Shown piece by piece: positions 30,990-39,899 of a DNA stretch of 64,000 nt. Source of the DNA: a virus; IMG/VR virus record IMGVR_UViG_3300017963_000201, positions 1 through 64,000 of that record; one strand, given 5' to 3'. Position 1 is the first letter of the stretch. Every line of letters begins with the position of its first letter. The notes beneath the pieces were generated by a model that was not told where the DNA came from, made no database searches, and saw nothing but the letters and a program-made list of their open reading frames with translations. Made by a program: the position numbers and the translations under genes.

Positions 30990-32115
30990 GTTTAGCGCCC
31001 TTCGGCTTTGCGTTTCTAGCCTCTTCCAAAGTATCATGGCGATCAGATTTTTTCTCTTCTACCATTTCCAAAAAGGCTTTTTCAAGCATCTCGGGCTTCA
31101 TACGTGCGCACTTTTGATCCCTACACTCCCAAAGACCCCTACTCTTAGTTTGTTTAGGATTCTTGTAACCCGCGTGCAAATCAAGTAAGGCACCCACAGG
31201 CCGATTGCAAGGGTAATCAACACAGCCACCACTATCAGAAATATTCTTGTGTATCGGGTAGCCAAAAAAATCAGGATCGGTATTTTGAAAAACAGTTATC
31301 ACAGGCTTCTCTAAGGCAGCGGCAGCGTGCATAAATAAGGACTCAATCACAATAGCTGTTTTTACCAAGGGGTGCTGGAACAAAGCAATGGTATCCCTCA
31401 AAGGCATACCTAAACAGTCAAAAGCACCCTCAATCCTCGTTTCGTACTCAAGACCTATTTGCAAAAAATTATACTTATCTTTATACTTCATCACCAAAGG
31501 ACTGACAATTTTAGGATCAAGATCCTTAAGTACATTGGTTTTTTGATACACTTTAATCATCCCCGATCCACCGCATTGGTTACAGGGACCTGGATTATTA
31601 GCAACACCACGACCTCCACACTTACCACAAGGCTTAGTCTGTACATCCCCATCCGAAGGAACTGCACCTTGAATATGTAGCAAAACAACAGGTTTCTTAT
31701 CCTGGCCCAATAACGTATCAGCCGCTCTTTTCTCATAGTCTGTGACATAATAATCCGGAGTACCATTATCAAAGTTCTCTTCAAAACCATACAGGCGGGC
31801 AATAAAGTGCGGAAGATTTTTAGCCCCATGGGCTGCATCATTCATAATATGATCATAGGGAAAAAACTTTTTAAAGTACCGTACCCTTTTATCTTTAACT
31901 TCTCTAGAAAAAAAATCCCCCACAGCATCCTGATCACCCAAAGATATTAATTTATCTATATTAGGGTTATGCCTAAGAACTCTTTCGTAAGTACATAAAA
32001 CTATAATCTCGTCTTCGGGATGTGTTTTCCGGGCAGATCTAATCATAGGAGTTGCCGCTATAACATCCCCACACCCACCCTGAACTAAAAGAATAATCTT
32101 TTGTCTATCTGACAT
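30979..32115 (-). CDS. GT9 (heptosyltransferase-like) glycosyltransferase with inserted DnaJ-type zinc finger
   Basis: GGCGDVIAATPMIR, FLQIG, IESLFMHAAAALEKP; internal CGKCGGRG...CNQCGGSG; GGAGG RBS before ATG 32115. Confidence 0.8.
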   Translation of the reverse strand: MSDRQKIILLVQGGCGDVIAATPMIRSARKTHPEDEIIVLCTYERVLRHNPNIDKLISLGDQDAVGDFFSREVKDKRVRYFKKFFPYDHIMNDAAHGAKNLPHFIARLYGFEENFDNGTPDYYVTDYEKRAADTLLGQDKKPVVLLHIQGAVPSDGDVQTKPCGKCGGRGVANNPGPCNQCGGSGMIKVYQKTNVLKDLDPKIVSPLVMKYKDKYNFLQIGLEYETRIEGAFDCLGMPLRDTIALFQHPLVKTAIVIESLFMHAAAALEKPVITVFQNTDPDFFGYPIHKNISDSGGCVDYPCNRPVGALLDLHAGYKNPKQTKSRGLWECRDQKCARMKPEMLEKAFLEMVEEKKSDRHDTLEEARNAKPKGAKHEF

Positions 32116-32148
32116 GTACCCTCCAAAGTGTAGTCTCTGAAGGGTATA

Positions 32149-32330
32149 ATACAAGAATACTAAGAATCCCATTCGAGACTTAAACTATGCTAAAATTGGT
32201 TAACACAGCTGCTCGATTCCTGCTCAACCAAGAGTTTCGTCTTCCCTTTGATGGAAAGACCAGCGCTCTCAGGGCAGCAGGCTGTCACCGCGTAGGTCGC
32301 GGCCAATTGTTTCAAATTTTCTGCAGCGTT
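32149..32330 (-). ncRNA. Predicted TnpB omega/reRNA (scaffold overlapping tnpB 3' end, guide from phage flank ~GATTCTTAGTATTCTTGTAT)
   Basis: Inferred from the known TnpB architecture; the element 3' end reads ...GAGCAGGAA...GTCTCGAATGG, resembling IS607-type right ends; 5' boundary is approximate. Confidence 0.5.
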
Positions 32331-33392
32331 CTCATCCCGGTCGTGCTTTGTCCCGCACTCACAAAACCAGTGGCGTTCGCTGAGGCTAAGCGCGTCGTAG
32401 ACAAGACCACAGGTCGAACAAGTTTTGCTCGAAGCGAACCAGCGGTTTGCTCGAACGACCGTTGTACCGGCAAACTTAGCTTTGTAGTTGAGCTGCCGTC
32501 CGACTTCGGCCATCGCGGCGTCCATTATGGACTTAGCGAGACGGCGATTCGCTACCATTCCTCTGATGTTCAAGTCTTCAATGCCGATCCAACGGAAACG
32601 TCGGACCAACTGCGCAGTCAATTTGTGCGTCACGTTCTTACGTACGTTGGTGCTTCGTTCGTACAGCCGCTGGAGCTTTGTTCTCGTCTTTTGCCAGTTC
32701 TTCCCTCCTTTGTGTCGACGAGACAACTCTTTGTTCAACATCCGCTGACGCTTTTCTATTTGACGCAACGCTCTAGGTGCTTCGATACGTTCTCCGGTCG
32801 AAAGAACGGCAAGGTTTACGACGCCCAAATCTACTCCGACAGCTGCTTGGGTTTCACAGCGGTGGGGATAAGACCAGCGGGCTTCGTCGACCTTGACCTG
32901 TACCGATACATACCAGTGCCCTGCGTGCTTAGAGAAGCGTGCAGAAAGGATGTTGCCCGGAAAGCGCAACGCTTGCCGGGTTCTAATCCATCCAATCTTT
33001 GGCACTTTGATTCGGAGTGCGTCAAACTGTATTGCTCTTCCCTCAATGCTAAAAGCAGGTTTTGTCCGCTTTTTACTTTTGAAACGCGGGTAACCGGGCT
33101 TTTCTCCGATTTTTACGCGCCGAAAAAAGTGCTGAAAAGCGTTGTTCAAATCTTGCAGAGCGCTATTGGGTACCGCCCAGGGAAGTTCTTTGAGCCAAAA
33201 CAGGTCGCTTCGTTTGCGCGCATTAACTTCGCGATTAATGCTTTGCCAGTTGGGCTTGCCGCCCGCTTTATATACCTGCTGCCAGCGATCCAAACCGAGA
33301 TTGTAAACAAAACGCGCCGCACCAGCAAACCGTTCCAGCTGCGTCATTTGCACGTTGTTCGGGTCGAGCCGAATCCGCTGTCCCAAAATCAT
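32190..33392 (-). CDS. tnpB: TnpB RNA-guided endonuclease
   Basis: HTH_OrfB start (RIRLDPN...ARFVYN), YPRFKSKK, RuvC-I GVDLG, RuvC-II IEDLN, Zn finger CSTCG..CECG, RuvC-III DRDENAA; catalytic D-E-D intact. Confidence 0.97.
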   Translation of the reverse strand: MILGQRIRLDPNNVQMTQLERFAGAARFVYNLGLDRWQQVYKAGGKPNWQSINREVNARKRSDLFWLKELPWAVPNSALQDLNNAFQHFFRRVKIGEKPGYPRFKSKKRTKPAFSIEGRAIQFDALRIKVPKIGWIRTRQALRFPGNILSARFSKHAGHWYVSVQVKVDEARWSYPHRCETQAAVGVDLGVVNLAVLSTGERIEAPRALRQIEKRQRMLNKELSRRHKGGKNWQKTRTKLQRLYERSTNVRKNVTHKLTAQLVRRFRWIGIEDLNIRGMVANRRLAKSIMDAAMAEVGRQLNYKAKFAGTTVVRANRWFASSKTCSTCGLVYDALSLSERHWFCECGTKHDRDENAAENLKQLAATYAVTACCPESAGLSIKGKTKLLVEQESSSCVNQF

Positions 33393-33544
33393 TTGGCGTT
33401 CATTGCCTTTCGTACGATCCGCCGAAGAATTTCGGATATCGACACGTCGTTGCGTTTGGCTTCAAGTCGCAGCCACGCCAAAAGCGGCGGGTCAAAGGAC
33501 AGTTTGATACTCGGCATTCGTTGTAGCTTTTTCGGAGCAGGCAT
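33389..33544 (-). CDS. Ribbon-helix-helix (CopG-like) protein, 51 aa, ATGA-coupled to tnpB
   Basis: Below the ORF track cutoff; translates MPAPKKLQRMPSIKLSFDPPLLAWLRLEAKRNDVSISEILRRIVRKAMNAK. Confidence 0.75.
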   Translation of the reverse strand: MPAPKKLQRMPSIKLSFDPPLLAWLRLEAKRNDVSISEILRRIVRKAMNAK

Positions 33545-33551
33545 GGTGGAG

Positions 33552-33580
33552 AGTATAGCTACGCCCAACGATTACGTCAA
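33552..33580 (-). promoter_or_regulatory. sigma70 promoter for RHH-tnpB (probably leaderless mRNA)
   Basis: TTGACG-17 nt-TATACT, with ATG 7 nt downstream. Confidence 0.75.
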
Positions 33581-33620
33581 GAGGCAACTTGATGGCTGTC
33601 TAGTTAACAAAGGATACACC

Positions 33621-35692
33621 GTGGAAAATACAAGCGAATTAAAATTTCGTCGGAAAGGTTGAATGGGATTATTGCCCATATTGACGCAGGCAAGACCACC
33701 GTAACCGAAAGGTTTTTGTACTATACGGGCGTGACTCATCGCATGGGAGAGGTCCACGATGGACAGGCCGTCATGGACTGGATGCCCCAGGAACAAGAAC
33801 GTGGTATTACCATTACCTCGGCGGTCACCGTGCTGCCCTGGCGCAAACATGAAATCCACCTCATCGACACACCGGGGCACGTGGATTTTACCGTTGAAGT
33901 CGAACGCAGCTTGCGAGTCCTCGACGCAGCGGTTGTGGTCTTTTGTGCCGTGGGAGGAGTCGAGCCCCAATCAGAGACAGTATGGCGACAAGCAGATCGC
34001 TACCAGATCCCCAGATTGGCCTTTATCAACAAAATGGATCGTGTCGGGGCAGACTACGAAGGTTGTGTCGAGCAAATGGTCGACAAGCTGGGCTGCGTTC
34101 CCATGCCAATCCAGATTCCCCTGGGAAAAGAAGAAAACCTCCAGGGAGTGGTCGATCTAGTCAGAATGGAGATATTGCGCTGGCATACTGAAGACCTTGG
34201 GGCCACCTTCGACCGCTCACCCCTCAATGACGACCCTGAAATTGCCGCCCTAGCCGCTCCGTGGAGAGACCGGCTGCTCGAGATTCTGGCGGATGACGAC
34301 GACCAAATCGCCGAGGCTTATCTTGCCGGAGATACCATTGCCACTGAAAAAATCATGGCCGCGGTTCGCAAGCAGTGCCTGTCCAACCGTGCGGTGCCGG
34401 TTTTGTGTGGCTCGGCCCTCAAGAACAAGGGAGTTCAACCCTTGCTCGATGCAGTCGTCGACTTTTTACCAGCGCCGGTGGAATTGCCTCCAGTCCAGGG
34501 GACCCATCCCCAGACCAAAGAACCGGTCGTCATGGAGCGTAATCGCAACGAGCCCTTTTCCGGCGTCGCGTTCAAGGTCCAACTCTGGGACGGACGCAAA
34601 CACACGTATCTACGCATCTACTCGGGCTCGCTGAGCGCCACTGACACGGTCTACAACCCGAACAAGGACGCCAATGAAAAAATAGCTCGCCTTCTGAAGC
34701 TGCACGCCGACAAGAAGTCCCGTATCCAACGGGCTGACGCAGGCGACATCGTGGGCGTCGTGGGGCTGAAAAAGGCGACAACCGGAGACACCCTGTGCAC
34801 CCGAGCCCATCCGGTCGTCTTTGGGCAAATGACGTTCATGACCCCAGTCATCTCCATGGCGGTGGAGGCCAAAACCAGCCGAGTGGAAGAAAAACTCAAA
34901 GAGGTCCTGGTAAAAATGGTCGAAGAAGACCCCACCTTTACCGTGACCCAGGATCCCGACACTGGGCAAACCATTTTGAGCGGTATGGGCGAGCTCCACC
35001 TCGAAATCATCTGTGATCGTCTGGAGCGAGAATTCCACGTTCCGGTCAATGTCGGCAAACCCCAGGTTGTCTATCGCGAGACCTTGTCACAGGCAACCGA
35101 AGCCTCGGAACGCTTCGAGAGAAAATTCGACGAGACAGCCAAGGCCAAAAACATGTTCGCTGGGATAACCCTCAAGGCCGAACCTCTAGGTCGGGGACTC
35201 GGTCTAAAGTTCACAAACACCATCGTCCGCCCCCCGGAAGCACCCCCGATTCCCGCAGACTTCATCCAGGCCGCAGAAGAAGGGGTCCGGGAGGCTGCTG
35301 GCGCCGGGCCGCAGTCAGGCTATCCCATCACCGACATAGCGGTCTCGCTCAAGGGCATCGAGTTCAAAGAGGGTGACACAACGCCCATTGCGGTTCACAT
35401 CGCCGCAGCGGGTGCTTTTCGGCGTGCCTGCGAAAAAGCCGGAACGGAGCTACTGCTTCCCATAATGGCGTTGGAAGCAGTGACGCCCGAAGATTTCACG
35501 GGGGCCGTTATTGGAGACATCAACTCACGGGGAGGCAAGGTCGAAGAGCTCGAGAAGAAAGCATCCAGGACCATCATCCGGGCCCAGGTTCCGATGACCA
35601 AGATGTTCGGCTATGCCACCAGCCTCCGTTCATTGACTGAAGGCCGGGGTACTTTTAGCATGCGGTTTCTCAAGTTTGATAGGGCGTCCTGA
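33621..35692 (+). pseudogene. fusA: Elongation factor G, host-like, 5' end split: GTG 33621 gives [13 protein letters not shown]-stop, and the body continues in the -1 frame from TTG 33659
   Basis: AAAGGA RBS before GTG 33621; body has [57 protein letters not shown]; conserved RNIG is replaced by CGG AAAGGTTGAAT GGG. Could still be expressed via the TTGA stop/start overlap. Confidence 0.85.
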
Positions 35693-35698
35693 CCGGGT

Positions 35699-35890
35699 AT
35701 GAGCAACCAGCCCCCAACCAGTAGCGAATCACGGTGTTACAGGGGCCTGGTCTTGTGGCTTGTGTTGGTCGCAGCCGGAATCCTAGGCATGCTTTTGGGG
35801 TTTTGGATAGGACGTCGGGCCGATTCGTCTTACCTCGAGCTTCAGGTTGTCTCCGATCGTATAAATACCAGACAAAAACGTCAAGAGTAA
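35699..35890 (+). pseudogene. 5' fragment of a single-pass membrane protein gene, truncated at the island border
   Basis: TM segment GLVLWLVLVAAGILGMLLGFWIG; GC-rich codons change abruptly to AT-rich sequence near 35855. Confidence 0.55.
35856..35884 (-). promoter_or_regulatory. sigma70 promoter firing leftward into the GC-rich island (antisense to fusA)
   Basis: TTGACG-17 nt-TACGAT. Confidence 0.65.
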
Positions 35891-36387
35891 TTATTTTAAA
35901 TTCCAATCTAACAAATTTATAAATATATCTTTTAGGCTATTATTATTACTAAAACACCTAATTATATTTTTAGTTAGTTTCAAAATTCTGGCATAAAACT
36001 TGCTTAAACTAAATAAAAATCTTACCAAAGAAAACGCGGATTCATACTGTGAATAAAGGGTGAAACGAGAAAAAGCCACTGACACAAAAAATTACACATA
36101 TATCAAACAACAAATCAAAGAATGGCATATTCTTTTGTACATTTAGGATTATAAGACCGATTTTTTTGATTAAATTTAAGTTATATAAAACAATGACATA
36201 AAAACACAAACAGAAATAATTCCGTAGTTGAACAAAAAACACAGGAATTTTTAGATTAAGGTTTGTATGGAGCACCTCAATAATTAAGGCATTTTTATCG
36301 AAAAAATACAAAAAAAATCCAGGGAATAATTCTCTATATATTACATAGTTATACCCCCATGTACGATTTAACTTGACAAAGTTTTTG
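35890..36387. other. AT-rich, A-tract-rich intergenic region at the strand divergence; candidate replication origin or control region
   Basis: No credible ORF, many A4-A8 tracts, phage gene orientation flips here. Confidence 0.45.
35989..36004 (+). promoter_or_regulatory. sigma54-type -24/-12 promoter
   Basis: TGGCATAAAACTTGCT = GG-N10-GC, close to TGGCAC-N5-TTGCW. Confidence 0.55.
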
Positions 36388-38728: not shown

Positions 38729-38935
38729 ATGCTACACAACACTTCAATAAGGCTATCGAAGCAAGAAAAAAAATGGCTTGCTTCGTTTGGGAGACCAGTT
38801 GGGGAGCAAATCAGGATACACAATAGGCTTGTGCGAAAGTTGTATGCCCTGGCCGAAAAAAACAAGACGATTACCTTAGCAGAAGCTCTATCAATATTAG
38901 ATAGCGATCCACTTGAGGAGTCTGATGCAGAATAA
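38729..38935 (+). CDS. Small RHH-like DNA-binding protein
   Basis: TSIRLSKQEKKWL...PVGEQIR beta-alpha-alpha pattern; AGGAGG RBS. Confidence 0.55.
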   Translation: MLHNTSIRLSKQEKKWLASFGRPVGEQIRIHNRLVRKLYALAEKNKTITLAEALSILDSDPLEESDAE

Positions 38936-39899
38936 GTACGAAATTATCCGAGAGCTGTTCAAAGAATATAGCTTGCTAAACTACCCACTAGCAAGCTACG
39001 ACGAGTTTATTCAACGAATAATGCCCGAAAGGTGCTTCAAGCTACTCTACGCGGCGACTCAAAAAATGGGCTACAGCCAAGCTGATTTTGTCGCAATGCC
39101 CCAACTAATGTACACGGTTTGGGTAACTGAAAAAACAGGTCGTCCTGTTTTTGAAGTCCGTCCCGATATTATGGAAGCCTTACGGGATACGGACATTCCA
39201 GACTTTCCTTTGGAAGATCTAAAACTACCATTCGAAGGAATAATATTAAAGATCGATCAAGACACTTTTCATGGGCCTGCAGCTAACACGGGAGTTTTGT
39301 ACGTAACCCAAGTAGACTCTGATCGCTTTCGTGTCGTCTTTGATATTAACGACGAAGATACACATTTTATGAACCTTACCACAGATGGGTGCCATACTCT
39401 TAAACAATCAATTGAGAAATCGACACAGGCCACAAAAGAGATCCCCGAGCATATTCTTAAGCAATACGAAGAGTCACGAATCTACTTTGATTACTATGAC
39501 TCTGATGTTTTTCGCTTTGTAATTAATCTTGTTTTGTACATTACAAGTCCAGATAGCGATGTGAAGCAAGACAAAACCAAGATACATGCTTTACATCAAA
39601 AGTTACAAGCGACAAAAAAGAAAAACAAAAGAGAAATTATTCTAAAGCAACTTAGAAAAGCTAAAGACCACAAAAGATATATCGTAGGTGCAAATACTAA
39701 ACTTACGAAAGAGTACAAGGCATCGCTGACTGATGCCGGAAAAAAGTGGGCACTCACTCACAGATTCAAAGTACGGGGACACTTCAGAAAGCAAGCCTGT
39801 GGTAAAGGTTATCAAGACCACAAGCGCATTTGGGTTTCTCCGTATTGGAAAGGTCCTACCTACGCAGAAATGCTAGGTATGAATTACGTGGTAACATGA
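38925..39899 (+). CDS. Conserved-type phage hypothetical protein (VRGHFR.Q.CG motif)
   Basis: C-terminal KVRGHFRKQACG...RIWVSPYWKG. Confidence 0.65.
   Translation: MQNKYEIIRELFKEYSLLNYPLASYDEFIQRIMPERCFKLLYAATQKMGYSQADFVAMPQLMYTVWVTEKTGRPVFEVRPDIMEALRDTDIPDFPLEDLKLPFEGIILKIDQDTFHGPAANTGVLYVTQVDSDRFRVVFDINDEDTHFMNLTTDGCHTLKQSIEKSTQATKEIPEHILKQYEESRIYFDYYDSDVFRFVINLVLYITSPDSDVKQDKTKIHALHQKLQATKKKNKREIILKQLRKAKDHKRYIVGANTKLTKEYKASLTDAGKKWALTHRFKVRGHFRKQACGKGYQDHKRIWVSPYWKGPTYAEMLGMNYVVT

Follow-up and report, generated by a model that had tools for sequence, protein, structure and literature searches.

The window analyzed here is the first 64 kb (64,000 nucleotides) of a 145-kb virus record, IMG/VR IMGVR_UViG_3300017963_000201, the completeness of which is estimated by CheckV at 79%. 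It contains an uninterrupted frame of 677 codons, running from TTG 33659 to 35692, that resembles translation elongation factor G (EF-G) and has all of the motifs G1 to G5. A first-pass annotation of this DNA had recognized a defect at the N terminus of the frame and ascribed it to a small scar within an otherwise complete EF-G 5′ end. The defect is real, but its cause was misread: what lies at this point is a junction rather than a scar. Very probably, the 5′ end of the frame is the place where the left end of an arc-tnpB insertion sequence (IS) element meets a truncated bacterial EF-G gene, the two having been captured as a block, and what has gone is not a few nucleotides but the promoter, the ribosome binding site (RBS), the start codon, and about 13 codons. 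The surrounding phage operon is encoded on the minus strand, and the neighboring genes are of phage type (glycosyltransferases, a phage metallopeptidase, a DNA methylase, and an NAD ligase). The features on which the argument turns are as follows.

32168 to 35855, no strand: GC-rich island of 3,688 nt, consisting of the IS, the 5′-truncated EF-G frame, and a 3′-truncated membrane-protein gene
About 32166 to 33667, minus strand: arc-tnpB element of the IS200/IS605 family, without tnpA; identified by Pfam domains, with both ends conserved in relatives
33545 to 33667, minus strand: left end of the element, holding the supposed RBS, GTG, leader, and TTGA; defined by gapless alignment, with the boundary uncertain within 33663 to 33670
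33621 to 33662, plus strand: supposed "leader peptide", the last 13 codons and stop of a 491-codon frame
33652 to 33670, plus strand: terminus of the left end read outward, with SD-like GGAAAGG, TTG 33659, TGA 33660, out-of-frame ATG 33663, and ATT 33668 (in the EF-G frame); SD, Shine-Dalgarno
33659 to 35692, plus strand: frame of an EF-G paralog truncated at its 5′ end; it has 677 codons counted from TTG, and homology to EF-G sets in at GGG 33665

The stretch preceding the EF-G frame is the left end of an IS element

The letters upstream of the EF-G frame are as the first-pass annotation described them. An AAAGGA SD sequence at 33609 to 33614, well spaced ahead of GTG 33621, the run of 13 codons from this GTG to the stop TGA 33660-33662, and the TTG at 33659, which shares letters with the stop as TTGA, can all be read directly in the sequence. 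However, the codons that had been taken for a typical EF-G start sit in the left end of an IS, and homologous left ends adjoin unrelated genes. On the minus strand, window positions 33535 to 33676 align gaplessly to the regions upstream of arc in five other loci, L005, L302, L214, L300, and L212. Mean column identity in this alignment of six left ends (A2) is 67%, the TnpB proteins of the other copies are 65 to 69% identical to that of the window, and the genes adjoining the copies are unrelated. Read outward, the left end of L005 gives ...EHEVRREG and then the same TGA. Both the TTG and the TGA of the window fall within the terminal hexamer of the left end, GGTTGA, all of which recurs in L005, and all six left ends share the T and final A of the stop codon (TGA or TAA); the other five do not conserve the AAAGGA or the GTG. 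Because this stretch is an IS left end found beside unrelated genes, we reject it as an EF-G start, and the likeness of its ELKFRRKG to the QLRIRNIG of EF-G homologs is, judged from the alignments, a coincidence. The comparison of 11 nt with an expected 6, by which the scar had been described, assumes that the upstream frame is EF-G and fails with that assumption. Nor is there a separate 13-codon leader open reading frame (ORF), GTG 33621 being an internal codon of a 491-codon frame that starts at ATG 32187. For annotation, this means that an apparent leader with a stop/start overlap before a translation factor can be a transposon end.

The left end has a subterminal hairpin, GGCGAAC..GTTCGCC, which is clear in L005 (z −3.4) and weak in L302 and in the window. 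The flank of the left end reads CAT in five relatives, as it also does at the phage target, and AAT (ATT 33668 on the plus strand) at the same alignment columns in the window. Three models of the boundary set by the target-adjacent motif (after CAT, 5 nt later, or inside the ATG) were compared, and the six diverged copies favor none of them. A multicopy IS was sought with which to fix the ends; the 12 contigs holding the protein P0127 represent a single site in one phage, and G001 has one close copy only. The left-end motif TCAACCNTNCCGNCGAA gave at least 116 matches in viral_contigs, none of the fetched stretches adjoining an arc-tnpB pair of this clade, and we attribute these matches to chance. 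An inverted 10-mer, GAATGGGATT, occurs at 32165 to 32174 and at 33661 to 33670. Its left copy is the conserved right-end terminus, and its right copy is the TTGAAT of the left end followed by GGG ATT. As explanations of this repeat, a remnant of a second IS copy, an ATTCAA/TCGAAT inversion, and self-targeting by TnpB were each considered, and none suits both junctions.

The element is a nonautonomous arc-tnpB transposon

The remaining parts of the element all lie on the minus strand.

32166 to 32189, minus strand: right-end terminus CATAGTTTAAGTCTCGAATGGGAT, directly after the tnpB stop
32190 to 33392, minus strand: tnpB, 400 aa, identified by Pfam and PHROG, with no TTA, CTA, or TCA codon
33389 to 33544, minus strand: arc, encoding a 51-aa ribbon-helix-helix (RHH) protein and sharing ATGA with the start of tnpB; its Pfam match, RHH_1 at E 0.0015, does not reach the gathering score
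33552 to 33580, minus strand: promoter-like site for arc-tnpB, TTGACG-17 nt-TATACT, its TTGAC invariant in the left-end alignment

TnpB matches three Pfam families, HTH_OrfB_IS605 (E 1e-13), OrfB_IS605 (RuvC; 9e-27), and the zinc-ribbon family TNB (1e-18), as well as phrog_506 (E 2e-106). Across 25 homologs, residues D188, E272, and D353 vary little or not at all and, from their position alone, would be the RuvC catalytic residues. Small ORFs homologous to arc lie upstream of tnpB in L005, L013, L212, L214, L018, and L302, and four complete copies of the element are 1,502 to 1,504 nt long. At the right end, the terminal ...CGAATGGGAT is near-invariant in 10 relatives (1 or 2 changes in L005, L015, and L016), and divergence begins immediately beyond it. 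No match to PF01797, the Y1 (HUH) transposase TnpA, was found in the 145-kb record, in a search in which positive controls were detected, so the element would need TnpA supplied in trans. It is a nonautonomous, IS1341-like TnpB element of the IS200/IS605 family.

According to Moon et al. (bioRxiv 10.64898/2026.09.24.754181), RHH genes in IS605-family elements encode Arc proteins that repress the transposon's promoter. Like Arc-bearing IS605 elements and ISDra2-type TnpB systems (Karvelis 2021, PMC8612924), the element in the window encodes a TnpB with helix-turn-helix, RuvC, and zinc-ribbon domains, has a small RHH gene upstream behind a strong promoter-like site, and has conserved, asymmetric ends, with the right end straight after tnpB and no terminal duplication. 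Unlike those systems, it has no tnpA in the 145-kb record, its arc and tnpB form one codirectional operon with an ATGA overlap, its left-end hairpin is degenerate, and a stop-free antisense frame covers the whole element. The gene callers of the public collections call that antisense frame as a 491-aa protein (window 32187 to 33662; L002:4529-6004) and miss both tnpB and arc, which is why the protein collection does not contain the TnpB of the window and offers at best an 80% match to it.

The EF-G frame is a truncated copy of a divergent paralog

The EF-G frame scores 799.5 bits against TIGR00484 (cutoff, 659.4) and contains all five EF-G domains (GTP_EFTU, D2, III, IV, and C). Its truncation is directly observed. 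Profile positions 1 to 13 are unmatched, residues 1 to 13 of Escherichia coli EF-G have no counterpart, and E. coli G14 pairs with window residue 3; the frame thus lacks a normal N terminus, as had been claimed. The nearest homologs, 65 to 74% identical and from uncultured Myxococcota and "Deltaproteobacteria", have some 11 to 14 residues and then RN[IML]G ahead of the shared IIAH, where the window reads LNG. The 80 GTDB matches all begin at residue 3, except for one at residue 2 and those on cut contigs, and contigs carrying the EF-G genes of other organisms are similar to the window only from 33665 to 33669 onward. One protein, P0005, was considered as a homolog truncated in the same way; its start had been miscalled, the DNA reading ...AQQRRRNMGIIAH from a TTG. 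Judged from these comparisons, the gene has lost not only its promoter, RBS, and start codon but also some 13 codons, among them those for R, N, and I of the first G-domain beta strand; they are missing rather than scrambled. The L and N at the start of the frame, and possibly the G, are encoded by the transposon end. The only start that retains the P-loop is the TTGA site (or ATT 33668), the next in-frame starts lying behind the P-loop.

The gene from which this copy derives seems not to be the canonical translocase. At the tip of domain IV the window reads FKEGDTT, and all 30 members of its clade have x[RK][ED]GxT in place of the canonical YHDVDSS. The clade members (P0004 to P0033), from Myxococcota-like metagenome-assembled genomes (MAGs), are encoded outside the str operon, beside isochorismatase, membrane-protein, and tetratricopeptide repeat (TPR) genes, and this shared order of isochorismatase, EF-G, membrane protein, and TPR gene indicates a second, non-str-operon copy. 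On sequence grounds, we take the clade to be a second, divergent EF-G paralog. Like other bacterial EF-G paralogs (TIGR00484; EF-G2-type second copies), it has the five domains and G1 to G5, and its identity to canonical EF-G is at most 56%; the domain IV tip sets the whole clade apart from canonical EF-G, and the window copy differs from other paralogs in lacking the residues that match E. coli EF-G 1 to 13. In a check for decay, four private changes were found at columns invariant in 29 clade members, which is within the range of other deep branches. Searches of viral_contigs with the EF-G and with its GT9-like neighbor found no related locus.

The IS and the EF-G frame were probably captured as one block

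The EF-G frame and the IS are parts of a single island with a GC content of 0.545; the flanks have 0.39 and 0.38. Both the island and its alternative allele are observed directly. Sister phages (in L293, in L295, and in a third run, X3), 99.4% identical to the window in the left flank and 98.1 to 98.9% identical in the right flank, have, in place of 32168 to 35855, 757 nt with a 252-aa gene on the minus strand, at the same break points; the two alleles thus differ by a replacement rather than by the plain insertion of an IS. The left break coincides exactly with the right end of the IS; there the sister reads ...CTACAT/TCTTAG, with the junction 3′ of CAT. The right break, 35855/35856, lies 6 nt upstream of the start of the 252-aa gene in the sister. 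Since near-identical phages exchange the 252-aa gene for the island, this gene is dispensable or exchangeable; in L293 (5098 to 5856) it is AT-rich and has no PHROG match. Three further features lie at the two edges of the island.

32146 to 32165, minus strand: phage DNA TCTTAGTATTCTTGTATTAT beside the right end of the IS, shared with the sister phage L293, in which it follows ...CTACAT
35699 to 35890, plus strand: chimeric ORF of 63 codons, the first 52 from the 5′ part of a host membrane-protein gene and the last 11 from phage DNA
35856 to 35884, minus strand: phage promoter-like site TTGACG-17 nt-TACGAT, pointing antisense through EF-G; in the sisters it precedes the 252-aa gene

The ORF at 35699 to 35890 shares with the genes that follow EF-G in the MAGs L311 and L003 a basic N terminus, one transmembrane helix, and the motif YL[EDQ]LQ..S[DN]. 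The island is thus one contiguous piece of a bacterial chromosome, ended by the IS on one side and by an illegitimate junction on the other. The undecayed EF-G and the unameliorated GC content suggest that the capture by the phage was recent, and the block points to a Myxococcota-like host.

We propose that the first step would have taken place in a bacterial donor, where the IS, oriented as is usual for it, would have landed in the 5′ end of the EF-G paralog, leaving its left end next to an EF-G stripped of promoter, RBS, start codon, and about 13 codons. The IS, the truncated EF-G, and the truncated downstream host gene would then have been taken up by the phage as one block that displaced the 252-aa gene. 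An insertion at the donor stage fits the way in which the exit geometry of this family of elements (GGAAAGG, TTG/TGA, ATGGG, ATT) is aimed at EF-G. Two routes of entry into the phage fit, a crossover between phage-borne and host-borne copies of the IS combined with one illegitimate join and an aberrant one-ended TnpA event, both of them suiting the exact right-end junction 3′ of CAT. The EF-G would be a passenger, poorly expressed or not expressed at all.

In its GC-foreign composition and its polymorphism among near-identical phages, the island resembles other cases of host-gene capture by phages, such as morons and the translation genes of large phages. Unlike those, the genes captured here are truncated at both ends of the block and oriented against the phage operon, and for these two reasons the island seems to be collateral DNA, not an auxiliary gene that has been adapted. 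Since both alleles are available, the case shows how a phage acquired host chromosomal DNA lying beside an IS.

From the known layout of IS605 elements (PMC8612924), the phage DNA at 32146 to 32165 is predicted to supply the guide portion of the TnpB omega RNA; Rfam searched over 31900 to 36000 gave no match. We speculate that, on coinfection, TnpB could cut the empty sister allele and repair would copy the IS and EF-G block. This suggestion derives from the occurrence of the 20 nt past the right end in the IS-free sister phage, where they follow CTACAT (L293:5080-5110).

A stop-free frame runs antisense to the whole element in its clade

The 13 codons once read as a leader are the tail of a much longer frame.

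32187 to 33662, plus strand: stop-free frame of 491 codons on the strand opposite tnpB, arc, and the left end; it begins 21 nt inward of the right end and finishes 6 nt short of the nominal left-end boundary, 33667

This frame is codon-aligned antisense to tnpB and then continues through arc and the left end. That it is open throughout the clade is an observation: codon-aligned antisense frames of 426 to 500 open codons are present in all 12 clade loci examined, and in complete arc-containing copies the frame covers the element from end to end. Consistent with this, no TTA, CTA, or TCA codon occurs in 13 of 14 tnpB genes of the clade, including four with a GC content of 0.52 to 0.53, while among distant tnpB genes with a GC content of about 0.5 only 1 of 48 lacks these codons, the median being 9. 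In the adjoining EF-G these codons serve for 7 of 54 leucines and 6 of 24 serines, and from this usage about 10 antisense-stop codons would be expected in tnpB, giving a probability of about 1e-5 of finding none. The openness of the antisense frame is not a by-product of composition. A specific protein is an unlikely product of the back strand: amino acid identity between the antisense frames of different copies is 38 to 40%, barely above the 32% obtained under a synonymous shuffle (z of about 3.5), and no Pfam family is given for the 491-codon frame in the public record. What the clade keeps is openness, not a protein. A perfect TATAAT at 32145 to 32150 (plus strand) lies 36 nt before ATG 32187, with a poor −35 sequence, TCCAAA; it was not reported by the promoter scan, and it is situated in phage DNA that the sister phage has in common.

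The end of the antisense frame has a regular position in the relatives. In L005, L212, L302/L304, L018, and L214, it stops (TGA or TAA) 5 to 7 nt before the ATG of the outward-facing neighbor, and this ATG corresponds in position to ATT 33668 in the window. An SD-like run (GGGAGG, GGAGGG, or AGAAGGA) precedes the ATG by 8 to 10 nt in four of the five and is weak in L018. Between the left end and the ATG of the unrelated, oppositely oriented neighbor are 0 to 6 nt (L005:1220-1352, L302:2958-3092, L214:511-650, L212:1217-1352, and L018:1280-1330). These neighbors are mutually unrelated, and the two for which a judgment could be made (one a virion protein, the other a baseplate wedge protein) are complete at the N terminus. 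In L005 and L212 the flanking genes belong to operons that run opposite to tnpB. The displaced native SD is visible past the right end, for example, GGAGGGTGAG in L005.

The most economical reading of this arrangement is that the antisense frame would act as a translational relay, in which ribosomes cross the element and restart on the neighbor. The survival of these elements just upstream of start codons in tight phage operons might then be explained by the ability of ribosomes to cross and restart. We did not find this idea for TnpB elements in the literature searched. In MIRU-type repeats of mycobacterial operons, the open frame of the inserted element is codirectional with the operon and ends near the start of the next gene, an arrangement suggestive of translational coupling across the insert. 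Here, in contrast, the frame runs against the phage operon and faces a truncated gene that has ATT and TTG. The observations add a clade of arc-linked TnpB elements, carried mostly by large phages, to the elements with a reverse strand that is open up to the start of a neighbor. IStrons are IS605 or IS607 elements fused to group I introns (PMC10690162). Both they and the present clade would be IS605-family elements with a device that lessens damage in expressed genes; the device there is RNA splicing, and here it is putative read-through translation and restart. If the open frame is indeed a device for ribosome crossing, IS605-family elements would have in it a way of lowering their cost, besides the splicing of IStrons.

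The EF-G is most likely a passenger

Should the relay operate at the junction in the window, ribosomes would stop at TGA 33660 and begin again at either TTG 33659 or ATT 33668, yielding an EF-G without about 13 residues that the phage would use to alter host translation; infected cells would then make a shortened EF-G paralog by which the phage retunes or disturbs that process. This we consider improbable, though clearly ahead of the other alternatives. The geometry is that of the relatives, the SD-like run, the stop, the 5 nt, and the start position all occupying matching columns of the alignment. Both candidate starts keep the EF-G frame, the next in-frame starts fall behind the P-loop, and the coding sequence is undecayed. 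On the other hand, no sigma-70-like plus-strand promoter was found at 32000 to 33660, and the phage operon and the promoter-like site at 35884 to 35856 run antisense through EF-G. The starts are weak, the TTG abutting the SD-like run without a spacer and the out-of-frame ATG 33663 competing with it. The product would lack R, N, and I of the first G-domain beta strand, and the sister phages manage without the island. It is on the minus-strand operon, the antisense promoter-like site, the failure to find a plus-strand promoter, and the weak in-frame starts that we rate the EF-G as most likely a freshly truncated passenger, for which the earlier label "fresh pseudogene" is a fair one.

Several points nevertheless weigh against our explanation of a transposon end joined to a captured passenger EF-G. 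The left-end hairpin is degenerate in the window. The boundary between the IS and EF-G can be placed no more finely than 33663 to 33670, and AAT stands there for CAT, so that the junction may not be a regular product of transposition. The 677 lesion-free codons would suit ongoing selection as well as recent capture. Finally, TTG 33659 and ATT 33668 both stand in the EF-G frame behind an SD-like run and a stop, as they would in a working coupling site.

That a complete EF-G 5′ end was broken by a lesion of 5 or 8 nt between FRR and G, which was the earlier reading, is now very hard to sustain. The loose likeness of ELKFRRKG to the QLRIRNIG of the homologs and the good spacing of the SD ahead of GTG 33621 would suit it. 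The stretch, stop included, is nevertheless homologous to IS left ends beside unrelated genes; its frame extends back through tnpB and has 491 open codons, not 13; and neither the SD nor the GTG recurs as a conserved feature of the other left ends.

We give even less credence to an artefact, either an assembly chimera or a consensus indel at the junction, the latter of which the first-pass annotation had allowed for. The abrupt change in GC content might suggest one, and our check was made on assembled contigs from Logan, not on raw reads. In X1, however, a single 35.6-kb contig covers the whole region with zero differences, and in X2, from another study and another year, three overlapping contigs cross both ends of the island, again with zero differences; the same letters, with no indel, are therefore present at the junction in two runs from two studies. 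Moreover, the ends of the island fall on the exact right end of the IS and on an intergenic site of the sister phages. Least probable of all is a programmed −1 frameshift joining the GTG frame to the EF-G frame, which is indeed −1 relative to it with the stop following: as had been noted before, there is no X XXY YYZ heptamer at 33640 to 33662, the homologs are encoded in a single frame, the shifted product would not be EF-G-like upstream, and the upstream frame is of IS origin.

Additional observations

Outside the island, the 324-aa gene at 38913 to 39899 lies beside an N6/N4 DNA methylase gene. The public record lists PF26125 (AcrVA2-like) for it, and a Pfam scan at E 0.01 gave no match.

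Some relatives of the element, L015, L016, and L215, have no arc; their TnpB proteins are 63 to 64% identical. Their ends are inverted-repeat-like, the left end read outward resembling the right end over about 27 nt. L016 and L215 are two different copies within one 75.6-kb phage contig. In L015 and in L016, both flanking genes begin with ATG ACA AA.

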